In this document: piece after piece, positions 25,900 to 39,388 of the stretch
Numbering within the stretch: position 1 is the first letter of the stretch
How the letters are laid out: the number at the start of each line of letters is the position of its first letter
Source: an uncultured Nitrososphaerales archaeon
GTDB lineage: Archaea > Thermoproteota > Nitrososphaeria > Nitrososphaerales > Nitrososphaeraceae
Direction: 5' to 3'
Assembly: GCA_963709405.1 (NCBI GenBank)
Contig: CAVPXM010000073.1
Location: 32,001-96,000 of the forward strand
Length of the DNA: 64,000 bases
The notes under the pieces: generated by a model
Told to the model about the DNA's origin: nothing
What the model saw: only the letters and a program-made list of their open reading frames with translations
Databases searched by the model: none
Made by a program: the position numbers and the translations under genes

Positions 25900-26440
25900 A
25901 TGTCAGGGGCCTTTGAGTATAAACCTAACTATATAAAAAAGGAAGAAATTATTAAAGGATATGAAAAGAAAAGTGAAGAAAAGATAGAGATACTTAGATT
26001 AGCTGGAATAGCCATGGTGATGATATTTGTAACGTGGCTGCACATCTTACAGCCAAAATGGCTAGAAAATATCTCCATCATCATTACAGTAATAGTTTGT
26101 GGATACCCTCTGTATAGGGAATCATTATCTTCATTGAAGAAGGGTCGGGTCAACATGGAATTATCTATGGTTATAGCCATTGTTGCATCACTTATTTTAT
26201 TACAATTTCTTCTAGCAATTGCAATCACTTTTTTTGCATTGGTGTCGGAATTTATCGAAGGATTTATTGTAAGAAAAGGAAGGAAAAATATTGAAGGACT
26301 TTATAGGTATACTCCCAGAAAAGCAATTGTAAAAAGGCGGAATGATCACGAAGATGAACAAGAGAATCTAACCACTCAAGAAATACCAATCAGCAAGGTT
26401 ATCGTTGGGGATATCGTCATTGTAAGAGAAGGAGACATCC
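25900..26440 (+). pseudogene. Heavy-metal P1B-type ATPase, N-terminal fragment
   Basis: GYPLYRES..SLKKGRVNMELSMVIA...VIVGDIVIVREGDI, then homology stops. Confidence 0.8.
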
Positions 26441-26749
26441 TTATTTACCCACTCATATTTTGGCTGGGTTATAGGAATGTCTCTTCTTGGTATTGGAACG
26501 GCTCTCGTGTATCCTACACTACTTGCAGTAATAAGCGATATTGCTCATCCAAGATGGAGGGCAACGTCTTTAGGTGTTTATAGATTTTGGAGAGATTTAG
26601 GATTTGTAGTTGGTGCAGTGGGGATAGGCTTTATTGCAGATATATCGAATATCAGTATTGCAATTCAATTTGTTGCATGGATTGCATTAATATCAGGAAT
26701 TTTTGTCCTTATCGTAATGCGTGAACCTAATCATACATTCTATCGATGA
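26441..26749 (+). pseudogene. MFS transporter C-terminal fragment
   Basis: LLGIGTALVYPTLLAVISDIAHPRWRATSLGVYRFWRDLG. Confidence 0.75.
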
Positions 26750-26996: not shown

Positions 26997-27131
26997 TTAT
27001 ACGGACTCATCATAATGAATCATATACCAACAACAACATTTGTCTAAGGAACAAGTAGGGCAATCAAATGCTGATTTGCTAGCAATACATTCTCCTGGAT
27101 AACAACCACAATCCACACATTTAATTTTCAT
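26997..27131 (-). CDS. Cys-rich 44-aa microprotein, metallothionein-like, copy A (not in ORF track)
   Basis: Hand translation MKIKCVDCGCYPGECIASKSAFDCPTCSLDKCCCWYMIHYDESV; two paralogs in the window. Confidence 0.8.
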   Translation of the reverse strand: MKIKCVDCGCYPGECIASKSAFDCPTCSLDKCCCWYMIHYDESV

Positions 27132-27402
27132 AGTTATATGTATGAGATACTAGACGATACGCTTAAGGTTTAATTAGCATCATAAGAGCTAGTTATAGAG
27201 ACTATTGAAGTTGCGCTCTTAACGATGTGACTATCAATTAATATTAGTTGATGTCGATGGTTGGATTTGCATCAACTGACTATGCTGTAAATGCTCGTGA
27301 AGGGGAAGTATTGTTACCTAATGCCACTTGAGGTCTATACTATAATGAAACGGAGACATTTAGAATGTTAGATAGGATAATACCAGACTTATACAAGGTA
27401 TT

Positions 27403-29601
27403 TCAACCATTTTCATTCTTATGAAGAGCAAATCTTCTAATTAATAGAGAATTGCCAAATACCGCGGAATCACTTATGACCCATCCTAATGCTGCTAATG
27501 CTGGAGTCAGTATTAGAGAATTTGTGAGACCGTATAGTAATCCAGCAGCAATTGATATCGTTATAACGTTATATGTAAAAGACATAGCTAAATTCTGTTT
27601 TATTTTCTTAAAGGAATACTGCCCTAACTTTAAGGCATAAAGAACATGCTTTAGGTCACTTTTCATAAGTATTATGTGTCCAGCTGACATGGCTATGTCT
27701 GTCCCAGAACCAATCGCTATCCCGACGTCAGCCTGTGTTAGTGCTGGAGCGTCATTTATTCCGTCTCCAATCATAATAACTTTTTTCCCTTGATTGATCT
27801 GTAATTTCTTTATCTCTAGGGCCTTTTCGGCGGGTGAGACTTGAAACAAAACCCTTTCAATACCAAGTTTCCTAGCAATAGCATCGACAGTTCTTTTGTT
27901 ATCTCCGCTGATCAGTATAATTTCTTTTTTCATCTTCTTTATTTCTTTAACAATATATTTTGCATCTTCTCTAAGTGTATCTGCGACAGCTATCAATCCG
28001 ACTAGTGCATCTTCTACAAATACTTCAACCACCGTTTTTCCTTCTAATTCTAGGTTTTCGATTTTTGACTGAATATCTTGGGAAATCAATCTAGTTCCAT
28101 GATTGTTATTTTTGTTGTCATCCCCATTTACTTTTCGTGTTGCTCCGTTACGACCAAGAAATATTCTTTTTCCCTGATATGACGCCAAAACACCTGAGCC
28201 AGATAACGAGTAGAATTCTGATACGTCCAGTTTCGGAATGGATTTTTCATTTGTTTTTTTTACTATAGCACTGGCTATGGGATGTTCTGATTTTGCTTCA
28301 ATAGATGATGCTATCTGCAATATACGGAGTTGATCATATTCATGATGATTTGAAATAACATCAGTTACTTCTGGTGTTCCTTTTGTCAATGTCCCAGTTT
28401 TATCAAACACTATTGTATCTATAGAAGATAATTTTTCAATATATCCTCCACCTTTAATTAATACCCCTTCTCTTGCCGCCTTATCTATTCCTAAAGATAT
28501 CACCATAGGAGTAGCTATACCCAATGCACAAGGACATGATACTACAAGCACCGTGGCAAACACAGTTATAGCAAATGAAATAGGTTCGTTTGCAACAAAT
28601 AACCAGTAAAGCGATGCACTGATTGCGATCATAAGAACGGTTGGTATGAAATACTGAACAGCTCGATCTGCGATTCTTTGCACAGGTGCTTTTGACATCC
28701 TAGCTTTCCTAACCATATCGATTATACTCGCAAGCACAGTATTGCTTCCCACATTGGTTGTCTTAAACTGAAGATAACCATTCTTGTTTAAGGTGCCACC
28801 TGTAACTCTATCGCCAATTTTTTTCTCAACAGGTATTGATTCTCCAGTAATCATAGATTCGTCTAGAGAGGATTCTCCGTCAATTACTTCTCCATCCGTA
28901 GCAATTTTTTCCCCAGGTTTTACAATAACTATATCACCAACAACAATTTCATCAGAATCGAGAATCTCTTCTTTTCCATTTCGAATAACCATTGCAGTCT
29001 TAGGTTTTAAAGCAAGCAGATTCTTTAATGATTCATTGGTTGTTTTCAGAACCCTGCTTTCAAGATATTCTCCTATTGTGAATATAGTTAAAACAGATGA
29101 GGAAGCCTCAAAAAATTGGATATGAGAAGATGTAAAGAGCAATGTAAATATACTATAAAGATATGCTACGGTAGTGCTTAGTACAACAAGAGTATCTGTG
29201 GTAAATCGCTTTCTGTATCTTATTGCTTGCAAGAACCTGTAATAAAATGGTCTTCCTAGAAGAACTTGAACAATTGTTGCTAACGCTAATATCACAAATT
29301 CAACCGTAATTGAACGATATTGCACAAATACTTCCAGCAGGACTATAGATATGGTTAAAGTGAGACCAATAATTATGAGTAATTTGTCGTTAAGCAGCAG
29401 ACGATTCTCATTCTTCTGGTGATCGCTTGTGTGCTCATGCTGCTGCATATTATCATGTTTTTCTTCATCACTTCTAGTAACTACTTGATTTAAGGCAGGT
29501 TCGTTACTGCTGCAACAATCGCAGTTAATATTAGCATCAACAGAAGAAAACTTAAGATGTTCTTGTTCTTTATCCTTTAATAACTTGTCAAATTTTTTCA
29601 T
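27403..29601 (-). CDS. Heavy-metal-translocating P1B-type ATPase (CopA-like)
   Basis: TGES, CPC, DKTGT, SEHP, GDGIND, YN in TM7; N-terminal CDCC and His-rich stretch. Confidence 0.93.
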
Positions 29602-29622
29602 ATATCTATAGTCCTCCCTATT

Positions 29623-29800
29623 TCACTTCTTCTTTGGTTCCTCGTTATAGTTTACACATTCAAATATTCCTCTTGCTATTTCTGATAGTATAGTATCGCC
29701 TTCTCGTAAAATGTTTGAAACCATCTTGTTGCGAATGCTGTAAAAAATATTCTTTCCTTCTCTTCTATTCTGAACAAGTCCACAGTCTAGCAGACACGCT
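29623..29800 (-). pseudogene. ArsR/SmtB-family metal sensor, C-terminal remnant
   Basis: ACLLDCGLVQNRREGKNIFYSI...IFECVNY; N-terminal half missing. Confidence 0.7.
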
Positions 29801-30188
29801 CTGTAATTGTATTGACACATTATTAGTTGATGATATGATGAACTATTGATAGCCATCGCTATTTAAATTCATCTATTACATCTCCTAAATTGAGATTGGA
29901 TATCTATCTAGGTAAAACTGTTACTGGCTGTCAAAGACAAGGTAAAATTAGGAGAATTAAGAATTTACTAGTATATTTGCAGATATGGCTTAATTATTTC
30001 CTCTCTCATACCTTGTGTTTACAAGAGAAACTATTTAAGTTGTCGAGAGAAACTAGGTAAAGTAGTGCGGTTATGGAAACAAAAAGAAATGAAGCGCAAA
30101 AACAAGATCAGTAAAAACAAGAACAGCGTTACCACTTGTTCAAAATATTGAAAATTGAGATTTTCATGGATATGATACTGATACACTT

Positions 30189-30488
30189 ATGAAAGAGACT
30201 GCTAAACTACGTAAGATAATTACAAAGAGAGGAACTCTTGAAATCCTAATCCCATTATGTTGTACCACTACACCAGTTAGATATCTAAAATTCAGAAATA
30301 CACTGAAGGGTTTTAGTAGCAAGACTTTAGCGAAAAGGCTAAAGGAACTTGATAAAAGCGGAATTCTAGAAAGACAAGCATACAACGAAATCCCACGAAG
30401 AGTAGAATATAGATTAACAAATAAAGGACAAGAACTTGTTGAATCTATAGTCTACCTATCGCAGTGGATGAGACGATGGTCTTCCTAA
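30189..30488 (+). CDS. HxlR-family winged-helix regulator
   Basis: SSKTLAKRLKELDKSGILERQAYNEIPRRVEYRLTNKG; CC pair. Confidence 0.9.
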   Translation: MKETAKLRKIITKRGTLEILIPLCCTTTPVRYLKFRNTLKGFSSKTLAKRLKELDKSGILERQAYNEIPRRVEYRLTNKGQELVESIVYLSQWMRRWSS

Positions 30489-30554
30489 AATTTTGATACG
30501 ATTCAATGTTTCTATTTTGAAAATCATTAATAGTAGTAATCGGAAGTGCTATGT

Positions 30555-30689
30555 GTGAATATCACGTGCTCGGAGTGCTTATGTGCACCTACCGATTGTA
30601 TTATTATTGATCGGAAAGATCCTCACATGTGCAAGTATTGCATAAAGGACATATGCTGCTGTATAAGTATTCATATAGAATCGGATTAA
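30555..30689 (+). CDS. Cys-rich 44-aa microprotein, copy B (GTG start, not in ORF track)
   Basis: (M)NITCSECLCAPTDCIIIDRKDPHMCKYCIKDICCCISIHIESD. Confidence 0.75.
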   Translation: MNITCSECLCAPTDCIIIDRKDPHMCKYCIKDICCCISIHIESD

Positions 30690-30803
30690 CAGCTATTCAT
30701 TAATTTTTGTCTTCTGGATTCAAGAATCAACAAGAAATGCTCTTAGAACTACAATCCTTCATCAGATTCTTATAATAGCAGGTTTTGTAACCCTTTATCA
30801 ACA

Positions 30804-31181
30804 TTGAATAGTAACGTAAAAAATATCTCAATTAGTTTATTCTTATTTTTTCTTGCTGGTTTATGTGAAATTGGTGGCGGATATCTAGTATGGTTATGGT
30901 TAAGAGAGGACATGAGCTGGGTTTTAGGAGTTATTGGTGGGTTTGTTTTGTTTGCTTATGGAATAATTCCTACCTATCAACCAGCTCATTTCCATCGTGT
31001 TTATGCAGCCTACGGTGGAATCTTTATTATCATGGCCCTAGCTTGGGGTTGGTTATTTGAAAGGATTGCTCCTGACATCTATGATATTTTGGGCTCAATC
31101 ATTGCAATTATTGGAGTTGTAGTAATATTTTATATGCCTAGAAAGAATGGTGGTGAGAAATCAATCTGGGCCAATCAATAA
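30804..31181 (+). CDS. YnfA family (UPF0060, SMR-like) membrane protein
   Basis: AGLCEIGGGYLVWLWLR, RVYAAYGGIFI. Confidence 0.92.
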   Translation: MNSNVKNISISLFLFFLAGLCEIGGGYLVWLWLREDMSWVLGVIGGFVLFAYGIIPTYQPAHFHRVYAAYGGIFIIMALAWGWLFERIAPDIYDILGSIIAIIGVVVIFYMPRKNGGEKSIWANQ

Positions 31182-31513
31182 TAATAATAATAATCATAGT
31201 TACTCTGACATTATTCTTTACTGCAGCAATCGCAGAGATTGGTGGAGGATATCTGATTTGGTCGTGGATAAGGAAAAAGAAGCCGCTAATTCTCGGTTTA
31301 GTTGGTGGAATAATTTTATTTATTTATGGAACTCTTCCAACGCTCCAACCATCGAACTTTGGAAGAGTATATGCAGCCTACGGTGGAATCTTCGTAGTAT
31401 CTTCTATTATCTGGGGATTATTGATAGACAAAAAGAAGCCAGACAGATATGACGTCATTGGGTCATTTATTGTGTTATCAGGTGCAGCAGTAATATTTTA
31501 CAGTCCTCGCTAG
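31166..31513 (+). CDS. Second YnfA family protein, frame missed by the ORF track
   Basis: Hand translation ...AAIAEIGGGYLIWSWIR...FGRVYAAYGGIFVVSSIIWG...KPDRYD...FYSPR*; probable CTG start. Confidence 0.85.
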   Translation: MGQSIIIIIIIVTLTLFFTAAIAEIGGGYLIWSWIRKKKPLILGLVGGIILFIYGTLPTLQPSNFGRVYAAYGGIFVVSSIIWGLLIDKKKPDRYDVIGSFIVLSGAAVIFYSPR

Positions 31514-31646
31514 CTAGCTGCCATAGCGAACATCTGTTAATCTTCATGACCATATAAGCGCTATCTATTATTGGATTATTGGACTACTAAATTTGCTTAT
31601 ATATGCTCCAAGTTTAACTTGATTCAAATCAGGGAGAAGAAAAATC

Positions 31647-32069
31647 ATGTTCTCGGGAGGAAAGAAAAATGAGAAGCATAAGAACAAGAAGAATCGCTTC
31701 TCATCAGAATATACAATGCTTTCAATCCTCGAATATCTTTATACAAATACACAAAAGATACCTGTAAGTAAATATAATATTGTGACAAATACTCCTGGTA
31801 TTAAGCAACAGAGACCAGATAGAGTGAATATCATGATAGATTCACTCGAGAAGAATGGATACATTACATCGGTAAATACCTCTCCCAATCTCATATTCTA
31901 TAAGATAACTCAAAATGGTATAGACGCTTATGAGAAATGGATTAAGGATTTTCTAGACTTTGCAAGAAATACAAATATTACTACTACACATGCAAGATCT
32001 ATCACAACCAATAATGAATCTTTGAAAAAAGGTAGCTATGACAGTAGTAACGTTATGATGACAGTGTAG
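31647..32069 (+). CDS. Winged-helix DNA-binding protein
   Basis: SLEKNGYI...FYKITQNG. Confidence 0.7.
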   Translation: MFSGGKKNEKHKNKKNRFSSEYTMLSILEYLYTNTQKIPVSKYNIVTNTPGIKQQRPDRVNIMIDSLEKNGYITSVNTSPNLIFYKITQNGIDAYEKWIKDFLDFARNTNITTTHARSITTNNESLKKGSYDSSNVMMTV

Positions 32070-32086
32070 TAAATAAGTAGAACACG

Positions 32087-32941
32087 CTAAGTGACCGATG
32101 CTTGTTGTTGTGGCAGTGATGCAGATGAAGATGATGGTTTAACTATGAGAATAAGATGAGTTATTCCTCTCTTCCTATGAAAAGAGATTTTGCTTGCATA
32201 CTCTCGGGCATCATCTGTTAAACTATCTCCTATTACTAGCCCTATGCCAATTTGATGTCTTGTAACCGAATTATATTTTATGAGCGAGTCTGCAAAGGAC
32301 TCTACGAGGTTTCTATCTATATCGCCATCAACGATCTTGATTATAATGGCTCCATATTCTTTTAGAACTCTCTTAAGATTATTACTTGAACTACTGCCAT
32401 CATTCACTACGTGATCCGAATCTAATAGGACATCAAATAACAAATCGTTAGCATCATGTATAGATACACTGAGAAATTCATTAGGACTCGTTTTTCTTGA
32501 ATCAATATAATCTTGCAACGGTTTGCTAATTTCTTGTATTGATTGCGACAAAGCGAGGATTGCTTCTTCTTTAGTTCTTGCTGTCATTGTAATACTCATG
32601 GTGGCCATTATGGTATTTCTTTCAAACATATCAGTCCACCTCTCGAGAACATTTCTTGACCTTAGTAAAAGTAAAACCAGTGGTATCAACACGGCTATTA
32701 AAACCCCCAATAGGGTAAGATCAACTATTTTATCTACTTGCTCACTTGAAGTAGAAAAATAATCTAACGCTCCAAGTATATTTAATATTGAAAGCACTAC
32801 AAGAGTTGCAATCAATCCAATAACAACGTAAAGATTTTTTTGTGCCAAGTGTATTAATCGGGTGGATTCATGACCAAATCTAGTAGTCAAAATCGCCGAT
32901 GATGATAAGTCAAAGTCATTAAATTTGTCTGTCTCTCTCAT
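32087..32941 (-). CDS. Two-TM membrane protein with soluble C-terminal domain
   Basis: 284-aa ORF with two hydrophobic helices. Confidence 0.7.
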   Translation of the reverse strand: MRETDKFNDFDLSSSAILTTRFGHESTRLIHLAQKNLYVVIGLIATLVVLSILNILGALDYFSTSSEQVDKIVDLTLLGVLIAVLIPLVLLLLRSRNVLERWTDMFERNTIMATMSITMTARTKEEAILALSQSIQEISKPLQDYIDSRKTSPNEFLSVSIHDANDLLFDVLLDSDHVVNDGSSSSNNLKRVLKEYGAIIIKIVDGDIDRNLVESFADSLIKYNSVTRHQIGIGLVIGDSLTDDAREYASKISFHRKRGITHLILIVKPSSSSASLPQQQASVT

Positions 32942-32995
32942 AATGTGTAAATATGTGAAGAATATATGGCATTTTTGAATATATAAAGTGGCATA

Positions 32996-33027
32996 TAACT
33001 AAGTTACAACCACTTGTAACTGAGTTA
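32996..33027. promoter_or_regulatory. 14-4-14 palindrome between divergent genes
   Basis: TAACTAAGTTACAA-ccac-TTGTAACTGAGTTA (13/14 match). Confidence 0.55.
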
Positions 33028-33067
33028 TTATAGTATTATTATAATCCCAATTATTAACTATGCATAC

Positions 33068-33880
33068 ATGAAAAATAAAATAGCATTTTTGAATGTCTCA
33101 CTGGTATTAACTGTATTATCCTTAGCGTTACTTCACGTGCAATCATCATCTTATCCTCTTGAAACAATAATTCATGGAGCAAAGGCTGCTGAAACGGCCG
33201 AAGAAAGAGCACATGAGGAGGGTGGAAATAGCACTATCCAAAATGGTTTTTCTCCAGCAAGTCCTGAAGAAAGCAAGCAAGTGACTAAACAATCAGAAAA
33301 AGAAGTCGCAATCAATTTATCACCACAAAGTTTAATTCAATCAGGCTCTCCATTGCAAGGAAATCCAGCAGCACCAGTTACAATAGTTGAATTTGGTGAC
33401 TTTCAATGTAAATTCTGTGATAGATTTGCTAAAGAAACTGAACCAAAGATTAATGCGACTTATATTCAGACAGGTAAAGCAAATATGATTTTCAAAAATT
33501 TTGTAACCCATGGGCCAGATTCAATCACTGCCGCTATGGCAGCCCAGTGCGCTAATGACCAAGGTAAGTTTTGGAGTTTTTATCAGATCCTCTATAAAAA
33601 TCAAGGAGAGGAAAACTCTGGTTGGGCTAATACAAGCAATATGAAAAAGTTTGCATCACAAATACCTGGCTTGAACATTCAAAAGTTTAATTCGTGCCTT
33701 GATAGCAGTAAATACAAATCATTTGTAGATAAGGATAATACTCTAGCAATATCTTCAGGATTTCAGGGCACGCCTAGTTTTGTAATAGAAAAGAAAGACG
33801 GTTCAAGTAGAGAAATGTTACTCGGAGCATATCCTTTTCCTTCATTCCAGGCGGTAATAGATAAGAAATTAAATGAATAA
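33068..33880 (+). CDS. DsbA-family thiol-disulfide oxidoreductase
   Basis: Signal peptide; VTIVEFGDFQCKFC; GTPSF. Confidence 0.92.
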   Translation: MKNKIAFLNVSLVLTVLSLALLHVQSSSYPLETIIHGAKAAETAEERAHEEGGNSTIQNGFSPASPEESKQVTKQSEKEVAINLSPQSLIQSGSPLQGNPAAPVTIVEFGDFQCKFCDRFAKETEPKINATYIQTGKANMIFKNFVTHGPDSITAAMAAQCANDQGKFWSFYQILYKNQGEENSGWANTSNMKKFASQIPGLNIQKFNSCLDSSKYKSFVDKDNTLAISSGFQGTPSFVIEKKDGSSREMLLGAYPFPSFQAVIDKKLNE

Positions 33881-34469
33881 TGAATGGATTAAAAGTAAAT
33901 TGAAAAGAGATAATAAAATAACTTCATTGCCGAAATTATCTGGATCGCGACCTTATCTTACTATTTCGACTTCAATAAGAATAGTCTTCTCAAATTGGCA
34001 TTATGTTGTTATAGCAGGAATTATATCCGCAATATTCTGGATCATATTTAGTATTTTTGACCAATTGCTATTTTTTACACCTATCTTTGTATTTTACCTA
34101 CCAGATGATGCAGTAACAGGATTTATTCTCTCCACTATAACTGCAATCCTTTTGGGTGTTGTTGTAGGAATGAATGTATATGTGCTAAGACATTCAAAAG
34201 GTTTGAAGATAAATATTAAATCATTTTTTTCAGGATCAACTTTAAGTGTGCTTTCAAGCACATGTGCTAGTTGTTCCTCACTGGGTTTTCTCCTTGTTTC
34301 TGCATTCGGAGGAATAGGGGTAACTGCATCAGCCTTTCTATCTAATTATCAGACACCTTTACGAATTCTTTCGATAGCCCTATTGATATGGGCACTATAT
34401 TCAATAAGTAATAAATTGACTAATAGTTGTGCACTACAAAAAGATGACATAATTAAAAACACCAAATAA
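33873..34469 (+). CDS. Membrane protein with CxxC, probable DsbA partner
   Basis: About four TMs; STCASC; overlaps the dsbA stop. Confidence 0.75.
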   Translation: MNNEWIKSKLKRDNKITSLPKLSGSRPYLTISTSIRIVFSNWHYVVIAGIISAIFWIIFSIFDQLLFFTPIFVFYLPDDAVTGFILSTITAILLGVVVGMNVYVLRHSKGLKINIKSFFSGSTLSVLSSTCASCSSLGFLLVSAFGGIGVTASAFLSNYQTPLRILSIALLIWALYSISNKLTNSCALQKDDIIKNTK

Positions 34470-34546
34470 TAAGAGCAGTCATTAGAGGACAAATCCGTAG
34501 CAATAGTAATGCTATTCCTGCAATTCAATCAACAAATTACCAGTTA

Positions 34547-34681
34547 TCATATGGACTCCTCACCATGAATCGTAGACCAACAACAACAATCCTCTAAGAC
34601 ACAGTTAGGGTAATTAAATGAAGAAATACTTGCTATACATTCTTCTGGATAACAACCACAATCCACACATTTAATTTTCAC
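34547..34681 (-). CDS. Cys-rich 44-aa microprotein, copy C (GTG start, not in ORF track)
   Basis: (M)KIKCVDCGCYPEECIASISSFNYPNCVLEDCCCWSTIHGEESI. Confidence 0.78.
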   Translation of the reverse strand: MKIKCVDCGCYPEECIASISSFNYPNCVLEDCCCWSTIHGEESI

Positions 34682-34991
34682 AATATTCTCATGTATGTAA
34701 TGCTAGGTGATAAAGTATACTTTGATTACTATCTCATTAGATATTCGTATTTGCATAGTAGTTATGTTGCTAAACCACTGGTAAATGAGTTGGACAATAA
34801 CGTATGAAGAAGAGAGACCAAACTACAATGAATTGGAGACGTAAATCAGGACATGATGATATCCGATCTGTGCAAGGCGGAGTAGCAACAGTAGCGGCAG
34901 TGGAGATTCTATCAGTGGTTAGCTTCTCTGCACTGGCACAAGCACACGACTCTGATTCATAGAATAGATCATTCTCATTCTTCTTTGATTT

Positions 34992-38186: not shown

Positions 38187-39388
38187 CTATGCTGTTATTT
38201 GTCTTCTCTCAATTTCTTGTAGTCTTGTTGTTATAGCAATAAGTTGATCTGATAAGTGTGCTATCGCATCATCTTTCATTTTATCACGGGCTCTCATTGA
38301 TTGGTTCAGTTGTTCTAGTTCTTCTTCTTTTGATTGTATATCTGCACCTTGTCTTTCTAGTTGATGGACATTTAGAAATGTCAAATACAGTTCGATCTTT
38401 CTAAATATCTCGGCTTTCTCTGAATCCTTTTTGAGCCAGTATGTAGAACCAGGATGGCCTATAAAATATTCAGAATAATCAGCATATCCTAGATCAGATA
38501 TAGTAGTTTTTACAAAGCGTCTAAAGAGTGAAGGGTAATTTGTCTTCGTCGTTTGTTACTATCCTCTCGAGCACCTTTACCCATTCTGTCCAAGGTCTTT
38601 GCAAAAGACCTAACTAAATCTTGATATAATGAAAGGGTTTTTGGGATGTCCTTGTTCTGATAAACCGCAAATACTAGATCAGTATCATCTTTAGTAGGGG
38701 TTCTATATTCTGTTATTGTTTTATTTTTTGATGTCGTATTCTGCTAATTGTTGTAAGATACTCTCCTTGTCGATATTTATAATCTATCCATAACTTTAGC
38801 TGCTGTGTCATCTCATCAGTTAAAAATGCAGTTCTGTCTGTTCTAGTTTTTGTATATTCACCTCTTACAAAAAACTTCGCCGGCATTGAATTTTCTTTTA
38901 GATCAAAATCCTTGATACGAAGAGATAACGCCTCTTGTTCACGCATTCCAGTTGAAGCTAGTAACATAACATATGTTTTTAATCGAATATCTGAGCAGGC
39001 ATTTATGATATCGATAAGGTCTTCCTTTGACAATGCTTCTTTGTTTTTCTAATTAACTTTGGCAGTCTTACCTTTAACTTAAACTTCCTCGGACTAATAT
39101 CCACATCATGGTATTCAAGGAAACTCTTGACAGTGATAATACGCGATTTCATCGTCACTGTTGAAATGTTAGAGTAGCTAAGGTATGAGATATATTCATT
39201 TAAAACCTGAAAAACATCATTATTCCCTTCTCTAATTCTTTTAATAAGTTCGTCTGTGGTTAGATTAAACGTATTTGATATAAAGTTCCTGAATGAGGTT
39301 AATCTTCTAAGGTATACATATGCTGTCGATTTATTCATAATACTGACATTTTGATATACTTAGAAATTGAATCGCCATCGCTAACCAT
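38187..39388 (-). pseudogene. Tyrosine recombinase/integrase with several frameshifts
   Basis: ASTGMREQE, TK, TLHS/LRRF split by an indel, YSEYFIGHPGSTYW; related to 8485-9261. Confidence 0.85.

Follow-up and report, generated by a model that had tools for sequence, protein, structure and literature searches.

A stretch of 64,000 nucleotides from an uncultured Nitrososphaerales archaeon (family Nitrososphaeraceae; assembly GCA_963709405.1, contig CAVPXM010000073.1, positions 32,001 to 96,000), hereafter the window, contains three short open reading frames (ORFs), designated copies A, B and C, whose predicted products are very small and unusually rich in cysteine. The locus raises the question whether such ORFs are genuine genes, to which family their products belong and what task these could perform. 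An original prediction, derived from the letters alone, regarded them as a candidate archaeal metallothionein family, acting as buffering or chaperone peptides for copper, zinc or cadmium in an ammonia oxidiser. The genes are found to be real, selected at the peptide level and confined to one archaeal order. As judged by sequence, the family, here called Cys9, is a new, unannotated, lineage-restricted microprotein and domain family of ammonia-oxidising archaea, and with somewhat better than even confidence we infer that its members are cytoplasmic thiolate modules, which bind metals or metalloids and act as a sensor, a chaperone or an exporter-attached binding domain.

Translation of the window agrees with the original prediction in the position, strand, length and cysteine count of all three ORFs (listed in the table below) and in their neighbours, copy A being next to a P1B-type ATPase, copy B between an HxlR-family regulator gene and a pair of YnfA genes, and copy C next to a DsbA-like gene and its CxxC membrane partner. 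Copy C indeed carries a tyrosine (codon TAC) in place of Cys24, the sixth cysteine position. Copies B and C are 38% and 66% identical to copy A, respectively, and residues I3, C5, C8, C10, P12, C15, I16, C27, C32-34, I38 and H39 are invariant across the three. A profile built from these peptides detected six intact copies in the host genome (E 4e-26 to 5e-16, the top match being copy A with E 4.4e-26), three of them in the window and one each on contigs C42 (copy D), C2 (copy E) and C51 (copy F), and one further weak match that contains a stop. Among 100 other Nitrososphaeraceae genomes, 74 gave matches with this profile, including the unpublished G035 and G076, and they cover 16 of 18 genera. 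Matches also occur in the sister family, where 8 of 43 genomes have them, and none was obtained in 257 genomes of all other families sampled in the phylum. Since the profile finds six host copies and homologues in so many other genomes of the family, Cys9 is not a product of chance.

The family pattern is C-x2-C-x-C-x4-C-x8/10-C-x2-C-x4-CCC within about 40 residues, with an acidic residue before the fourth cysteine. It is present at every position in copies A and B, and copy C, which lacks the sixth cysteine, is the sole sequence without it (1 of 46 in the alignment). In 46 aligned full-length peptides, whose mean column identity is 42%, eight cysteines are invariant and the ninth is found in 45; Ser18, Ser20 and Trp35 are at least 90% conserved, position 14 is solely Glu or Asp, and intervening columns contain up to 15 different residues. 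Of the motif initially proposed for the three copies, the cysteine pattern thus extends to the whole family, but the C-terminal IH..ES part is limited to a B-type subfamily, the C-terminal I and H occurring in 26 of 45 and 22 of 45 sequences of this alignment, respectively, and the H being conserved in at least 90% of the B-type members. Two types can be distinguished: type 1 (copies A and C and host copies D and E), which follows C-x2-C-x-C-x4-C-x8-C-x2-C-x4-CCC-W and is mostly free-standing, and type 2 (copy B and host copy F), whose middle loop is longer and whose CCC triplet is followed by a conserved His.

At the codon level, each cysteine column has TGT as well as TGC, in counts such as 24/22 and 26/20 among the 46 sequences, and all four TCN codons are used for Ser20. 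Pairwise dN/dS over the core from Cys1 to Trp has a median of 0.24, with all 279 usable pairs (of 1035) below 1, and a median of 0.48 once the cysteine columns are removed. Because cysteine codons switch between TGT and TGC with the residue kept constant, and because the median dN/dS is 0.24, selection acts on the peptide, which bears out the argument first made from the divergence of copy B. Among 58 ORFs from other genomes, ATG is the start codon in 52, and the start lies exactly four codons before the first cysteine in 39, with this cysteine at residues 3 to 8 in all, a regularity that is partly by construction as the start-picking script favoured starts 2 to 8 codons upstream of the first cysteine. 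Upstream of the starts, T is enriched at positions -29, -28 and -27 (29, 25 and 30 of 46 sequences versus about 31% at random ATGs), and a TATA-like hexamer begins between -36 and -24 in 24 of 46 sequences versus 6% of 1840 random ATGs; the sequences compared are kin, and these frequencies are given without a probability. This element may represent a promoter placed for leaderless transcripts.

A HMMER scan of 1.84 billion cluster representatives yielded 117 proteins at E<=0.001, and a word-indexed search of 5.8 billion proteins yielded 91 short matches, which are all unnamed or labelled 'hypothetical protein'; none of the latter has a Pfam domain, and the four with an organism name all come from Nitrososphaeraceae. 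Hence, the ORFs described at first as hidden are unannotated, but 91 short homologues are already public as hypothetical proteins. A single-sequence word search returned the window's own protein alone. Copies A, B and C matched no family in Pfam-A at E<=10 and none in NCBIfam, so that the family, predicted to match neither SmtA/BmtA nor MymT, fits no curated family at all. PDB sequences gave only chance-level matches to the family profile (E 0.36 and 0.46). The AlphaFold2 model of copy A (mean pLDDT 86.9) consists of two short helices with loops in the remainder and no strands, and a Foldseek search of the peptide model against the PDB returned no matches. Neighbours in the Atlas and in protein language-model searches were either the family's own clusters or small zinc-ribbon families scoring below 0.9, which serve as leads only. 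In the literature on archaeal or Thaumarchaeota metallothioneins and small cysteine-rich Nitrososphaera proteins, and in that on arsenic and arsM in ammonia-oxidising archaea, the titles and beginnings of abstracts contain no description of the family, and those of the second group do not mention HxlR. Cys9 thus belongs to no known family, and in kind it would be one of the small thiolate metal-binding modules.

The Cys9 domain is also fused to a variety of other proteins, whose partner domains were checked by Pfam or NCBIfam. Five database proteins join it to HxlR-type regulators (P0114, P0158, P0138 and P0224 by hmmscan, P0225 by a precomputed Pfam tag), and this architecture is preserved in two pairs at 52% and 42% identity. 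Further partners are an ArsR-type HTH_5 domain (P0113), a Response_reg receiver, an SLFN_AlbA_2 DNA-binding domain, a DUF2061 protein, HFX_2341_N/CARF-like domains in two database proteins, and the alkylmercury lyase MerB (P0139, 42.1 bits in Pfam versus a cut-off of 27, and under the cut-off in NCBIfam). In a closed genome of the sister family, the domain is fused to a CDF cation-efflux protein (L126; PF01545 E 2.7e-22, TIGR01297 above cut-off), which adjoins ABC-transporter-like genes assigned by eye only, and elsewhere the frame of an ars-type aquaporin continues into a Cys9 domain without a stop. A homologue of the CxxC membrane ORF of the window (P0209, E 1e-24) carries the domain at its C-terminus, and about 31 membrane proteins of 278-295 aa have a Cys9 domain as well; a precomputed DUF6789 tag is attached to 18 of the 54 matches classed as longer, for which our own scan places DUF6789 under its cut-off. 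As the HxlR, ArsR and receiver partners are cytoplasmic, the Cys9 domain would reside in the cytoplasm with its cysteines reduced.

Type-2 domains were found in 13 other genomes as the N-terminal domain of a membrane protein of about 240-290 aa, whose membrane domain (alignment A3) has invariant Cys and Glu residues within predicted helices. When copy B is aligned with the N-termini of 12 of these fused proteins, 9 of 9 cysteines are invariant, and by this alignment copy B is a stand-alone counterpart of the N-terminal domain in these membrane proteins of about 265 aa. One 266-aa member of the fused proteins matched no Pfam or NCBIfam family, and the AlphaFold2 model of the fused protein, with a pLDDT of 58.1, was too poor for a structure search. 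L062:4329-5120 (-) and 12 relatives (alignment A3) make up an uncharacterised archaeal membrane protein family of about 220 aa that bears the type-2 domain, with invariant Cys/Glu motifs in two repeat-like helices and CCS between them. The host genome lacks the type-2 membrane domain save for a 33-residue fragment, and a YnfA pair follows both copy B and copy F. The idea that copy B and the YnfA pair are a split version of the fused protein was rejected, since hhalign gave a probability of 0.3 for a relation between the membrane domain and YnfA; this lack of relation indicates a swap of partners and not a split gene.

Regarding genomic company, several arrangements concern arsenic. In the host, copy E on C2 closes a co-directional row of arsM, arsC, aquaporin and peptide genes with an HxlR gene divergent from it, and the ACR3 arsenite exporter and a universal stress protein are among its neighbours. 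The same order, HxlR<>arsM-arsC-MIP-peptide with the peptide last, recurs in L042, L067 and L069. Copy F belongs to an HxlR-peptide-YnfA-YnfA unit, divergent from a second arsM-arsC-aquaporin row (C51), and a third ars row (C61) has integrase/transposase fragments, assigned by eye, at a place where a peptide could have been expected. ArsM on C51 and ACR3 score above NCBIfam cut-offs, and no canonical ArsR sensor is located beside the peptide-linked ars operons. Two genes of these islands are interrupted, arsM on C2 being split into two ORFs (L038:6754-7499) and the HxlR gene on C51 being split by a frameshift (L039:6630-7044), which could reflect pseudogenes or assembly errors in duplicated ars islands.

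Outside the host, 60 loci were compared, one per genome (the best match) and many on short contigs, comprising 51 type-1 and 9 type-2 loci, with 438 neighbour ORFs clustered. The arsM-arsC-aquaporin-peptide row is present at 3 of the 51 type-1 loci, and ars genes lie beside 2 of the 9 type-2 loci. HxlR occurs in 6 of 60 loci, and an HxlR gene directly followed by the peptide is found in the window, on C51 and in L070, L074 and L125. A DsbA-like gene and/or its CxxC membrane partner is present in 5 of 60 loci, and a row of DUF7482, HFX_2341_N-like, unknown membrane and DUF3179 genes in 4-6 loci from several genera (L049, L063, L080, L098, L061); beside type-1 peptides, the DUF7482 row often includes the DsbA-like gene and its partner. 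A Redoxin/Thioredoxin_10 gene is divergent from the peptide at a median of 76 nt in four loci, together with SDR and cupin genes, AhpC is also among the thiol-redox neighbours, and ChaB with glyoxalase (three loci) and a TehB-like methyltransferase (four loci) recur as well. In the sister family, the peptide lies 64 nt downstream of CbtA on the same strand (L121), after an HxlR gene (L125), or overlapping the end of a homologue of the CxxC membrane ORF (E 4e-24) near ZnuA (found in L118). Divergent from the HxlR-peptide pair of L125 is also a 113-aa protein (L125:3654-3995, -), whose N-terminal third is Cys-rich and which matches no Pfam family. A count by which five of the six host copies fall into the 2.1% of the genome lying no more than 3 kb from nine chosen families was set aside, as these families had been drawn from the same neighbourhoods.

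In this survey, the company and fusions of the family are dominated by metal and metalloid genes (CDF, ZnuA, CbtA, MerB, arsM-arsC-aquaporin-ACR3 and one P1B ATPase), so that its ties to the handling of such elements are strong, if circumstantial. Taken by element, the contexts would point to As(III), which has the best operon evidence, Hg (MerB), Zn/Co (CDF, ZnuA, CbtA) and Cu (the ATPase). The early emphasis on copper is not sustained, because the best-supported operon link is to arsenic and HxlR.

A cytoplasmic thiolate module for metals or metalloids is favoured because of the nine invariant thiols within 40 residues, the cytoplasmic setting and the list of partners. The nine cysteines and the always-acidic residue before the fourth of them would probably make up a compact thiolate cluster or site that takes up thiophilic metal or metalloid ions, the candidates being Zn/Cd, Cu(I), As(III) and Hg(II). 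Such a module would be portable, working as a free peptide, as a sensing domain when fused to winged helix-turn-helix regulators, and as a cytosolic binding or hand-over domain when fused to exporters or channels, in the manner of HMA domains and ArsD. In the window, copy B would serve the HxlR-controlled YnfA pair, whose counterparts elsewhere in the genome lie beside arsenic-detoxification genes, copy A may serve the adjacent P1B ATPase, which lacks an HMA domain, and copy C is probably a recent duplicate minus one ligand. A more specific proposal, which is put forward tentatively and is rather doubtful, holds Cys9 to be a lineage-specific metal or metalloid sensor working with HxlR-type regulators in trans or in cis, where the peptide, once charged with As(III) or a different thiophilic ion, would switch HxlR and pass this ion on to an exporter (YnfA pair, CDF or aquaporin). 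If true, this would constitute a new two-part sensing and trafficking system in ammonia-oxidising archaea. A complex prediction of the HxlR dimer with a B-type peptide and two Zn scored 0.01, which is evidence neither way.

Several observations weigh against a metal-binding module of this kind. At most type-1 loci no metal gene can be recognised in the flanking stretches retrieved, the contexts are heterogeneous, and those that are informative indicate differing elements (As, Hg, Zn/Co, Cu). The association with a P1B ATPase, which the original prediction had noted, holds for copy A by adjacency, but such an ATPase occurs in the retrieved flanks of only one of the 60 other loci. The host's six closest HxlR paralogues are divided evenly between those close to a peptide and those with none beside them, and known HxlR-family members are mostly sensors of electrophiles or oxidants. 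The HxlR, MerB and other soluble fusions are metagenome gene calls, judged at the protein level. Contigs of the RNA-library run X20, which represent a related strain of about 95% identity and extend over most of the stretch, have a flat depth that is uninformative on transcription, and gaps in their cover carry no meaning either. The recurrent thiol-redox neighbours (Redoxin/Thioredoxin_10, AhpC and DsbA) fit a redox switch equally well.

Such a zinc-thiolate redox switch, or else a structural zinc-ribbon micro-domain, in which one or two Zn hold the fold and the peptide senses oxidants or electrophiles or provides protein contacts for HxlR and membrane partners, is the alternative to be taken most seriously, although it is considered fairly unlikely. 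The CxxC(G) and CPxC knuckles are ribbon-like, with G after the first in 27 of 46 peptides and P opening the second in 35 of 46, small zinc-ribbon families appear among the language-model leads mentioned above, the domain is fused to several DNA-binding proteins, and Redoxin/Thioredoxin_10 in its four loci, AhpC, and DsbA with its partner would be natural company. Nevertheless, nine invariant cysteines including a CCC triplet exceed the needs of a ribbon, and the CDF, MerB and ars-aquaporin fusions together with the arsM-arsC-MIP operons indicate a bound metal or metalloid and not oxidants. A true metallothionein, with free peptides that sequester or buffer excess Cu, Zn or Cd like SmtA/BmtA or MymT, would explain the cysteine content of about 20%, the small size, the several copies per genome and the metal-resistance contexts, and nine cysteines match the number of ligands in M3Cys9 clusters. 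This storage role, which was among those first proposed, becomes less likely in view of how often the domain is joined to regulators and transporters: repeated fusion to regulators, receivers and transporters would be unexpected in a storage protein, and the HxlR (five), ArsR, receiver, exporter and channel fusions favour a sensing or hand-over domain instead. As, in addition, neither PF02069 nor any other metallothionein family was matched at E<=10, it is regarded as improbable.

An Fe-S cluster mini-domain serving as a sensor of redox state or nitric oxide would agree with the many closely spaced cysteines and the association with regulators and redox enzymes, yet no Fe-S family was matched at E<=10 in Pfam or NCBIfam, the spacing is unlike the common [4Fe-4S] or [2Fe-2S] motifs, and the metal-exporter and ars/mer contexts would go unexplained, making this very improbable. 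Hardly credible is the notion that the ORFs are untranslated or encode the precursor of a secreted or modified disulfide-rich peptide (a ribosomally synthesised and post-translationally modified peptide, a toxin or a signal). Small size, many cysteines and several diverging copies per genome would suit it, but there is no leader or signal sequence, the first cysteine being residue 5, no modifying enzyme recurs among the 438 neighbour ORFs, the domain is fused to cytoplasmic regulators, and the codon-level evidence argues for translation.

Returning to the thiolate module, its nearest counterparts among known systems differ from it in instructive ways. SmtA/BmtA proteins (PF02069), characterised by a Zn4Cys9His2-type cluster and a high metal-to-protein ratio, are likewise small and cytoplasmic, with nine cysteines, an adjacent winged-helix regulator and metal-resistance contexts, and the window copies add His. 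In contrast, Cys9 has no sequence match to them at E<=10 and a different cysteine spacing with the CCC triplet, its adjacent regulator is HxlR and not SmtB, and it is known here from sequence only; SmtA is not known to be widely fused to other proteins, unlike the Cys9 module. As for an adjacent ArsR/SmtB-type sensor such as controls SmtA, the regulator found beside the peptides is HxlR, a weak ArsR-like remnant lies upstream of the ATPase, and one metagenomic protein joins an ArsR-type HTH to the domain. HMA domains (CopZ/Atx1, MerP, NmerA and the N-termini of P1B ATPases) are similarly thiolate modules that occur free or on exporters and a mercury enzyme, but their fold is ferredoxin-like, spans about 70 aa and has just one CxxC, whereas Cys9 has nine cysteines in about 40 aa. 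Compared with the HMA family (PF00403), Cys9 peptides gave no Pfam match and a model without strands that found nothing in the PDB by Foldseek. ArsD is also a small cysteine protein with vicinal cysteines located inside ars operons, and a hand-over of As(III) to efflux is conceivable for Cys9 too, but ArsD (PF06953) has no sequence relation to Cys9, which additionally keeps company with Zn/Co, Hg and thiol-redox genes, and no ArsA-like cluster is among the recurrent peptide neighbours.

Csp, a copper-storage protein, is a four-helix bundle. As far as the available part of its description goes, it resembles Cys9 as a cysteine-rich candidate metal store in the same organism group, but is unrelated in sequence. 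That part of the paper, on copper limitation in Nitrososphaera viennensis (PMC7785015), names Csp, with 18 cysteines amounting to 15.3% of residues and hence, by arithmetic, a length of about 118 aa, and contains no mention of the Cys9 family. Haloarchaeal zinc-finger micro-proteins with four cysteines in two C(P)XCG motifs, as described in the available parts of three reports (PMC6562870, PMC10716476, PMC11241148), are a motif class and not a curated family. On that description, they are archaeal too, shorter than 70 aa, built on CxxCG/CPxC knuckles and often missed by annotation; unlike them, Cys9 has nine invariant cysteines with one full CxxCG, no G following its CPxC, and belongs to another taxon and another genomic company.

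Ammonia-oxidising archaea drive nitrification in soils and oceans and depend on copper while being sensitive to other metals, and their metal sensing and trafficking are poorly mapped. A lineage-wide, multi-copy module residing on regulators, exporters, a mercury lyase and in ars operons would be a missing component thereof, and its genes are directly testable candidates for arsenic, mercury, zinc and copper handling. Cys9 is further a clear case of conserved microproteins left unnamed by standard annotation, and would offer a small new metal-binding scaffold for structural work.

Table. Positions of the Cys9 copies and their neighbours within the window
Feature	Position	Strand	Remarks
Copy A, type-1 Cys9 microprotein	26997..27131	-	44 aa, ATG start, 9 Cys
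Heavy-metal P1B-type ATPase, 732 aa	27403..29601	-	upstream of copy A
77-aa ArsR-wing-like remnant	29623..29856	-	upstream of the ATPase; weak PDB-sequence matches
HxlR-family winged-helix regulator	30189..30488	+	PF01638 E 5.8e-20, 71.4 bits (cut-off 20.8)
Copy B, type-2 Cys9 microprotein	30555..30689	+	44 aa, GTG start, 9 Cys
YnfA/UPF0060 membrane protein 1	30804..31181	+	Pfam PF02694 E 3.7e-39
YnfA/UPF0060 membrane protein 2	31199..31513	+	tblastn with YnfA-1
Secreted DsbA/thioredoxin-like protein	33068..33880	+	Thioredoxin_4 E 5.5e-31, DSBA E 4.1e-10 (Pfam)
198-aa CxxC membrane protein	33873..34469	+	partner of the DsbA-like gene, convergent with copy C
Copy C, type-1 Cys9 microprotein	34547..34681	-	44 aa, GTG start, 8 Cys

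Within the window, copy B is the best-anchored of the three, as its link to HxlR is mirrored by the HxlR fusions and its link to an exporter by the type-2 and CDF fusions. It begins 66 nt past the HxlR gene and ends 114 nt ahead of the YnfA/UPF0060 pair, within a 2-kb duplicate of the HxlR-peptide-YnfA-YnfA unit that is 87.6% identical to the copy F unit on C51, in which copy F has ATG at the codon homologous to the GTG of copy B. The window HxlR gene is one of 11 HxlR matches in the host genome. The ars-associated HxlR paralogues, including that at 30189-30488, have a common vicinal Cys-Cys pair towards the beginning of the winged helix, and a second HxlR subtype, found beside type-1 peptides, has one CxC near the N-terminus and another near the C-terminus; these motifs are possible ligand sites of the regulators themselves. 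YnfA-1 matches YnfA-2 by tblastn with 52.9% identity (E 8e-28, C73:63199-63510), and YnfA-2 has no ATG, GTG or TTG at its expected beginning, which is preceded by a run of AAT repeats after the YnfA-1 stop.

Copy C is convergent with the DsbA-like and CxxC membrane genes, 78 nt from the end of the latter, whose product matches no Pfam or NCBIfam family; this link has parallels in a fusion and in the operon of a distant genome. Copies C and D are 96.5% identical across 713 nt (spanning approximately 34082-34794 in the window) with a dN/dS of 0.98. Copy C is thus probably a recent duplicate, which, given this dN/dS and the loss of one ligand, may be decaying. Integrase-like ORFs, assigned by eye, are present at 38713-39338 in the window and at C42:159-1361, and together with the identity of the shared segment they suggest recent movement on a mobile element.

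Copy A lies 271 nt downstream of the P1B ATPase on the same strand, and its link to this ATPase is one of adjacency, combined with the absence of an HMA domain from the latter. On TIGR01525 the ATPase reaches 593 bits (cut-off 346) and on TIGR01511 530 bits (cut-off 397); it exceeds the cut-off on TIGR01512 as well, and scores best on the Cu subfamily; Pfam at E<=0.01 gives only E1-E2_ATPase, Hydrolase and Hydrolase_3, with no HMA metal-binding domain. The 77-aa ORF upstream of it is weakly similar to the C-terminal wing of ArsR-family chains among PDB sequences (E 0.002-0.008). Contigs of two DNA runs and one RNA-library run contain 146-148 extra letters at 29799/29800, and the window copy therefore seems to lack part of an ArsR-like regulator gene. 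Just beyond copy A, a 227-aa ORF at 25900-26583 (+) with a weak E1-E2 ATPase match (E 3.7e-4, under cut-off) and an overlapping 90-aa ORF at 26477-26749 (+), by eye a transporter fragment, are apparent gene remnants.

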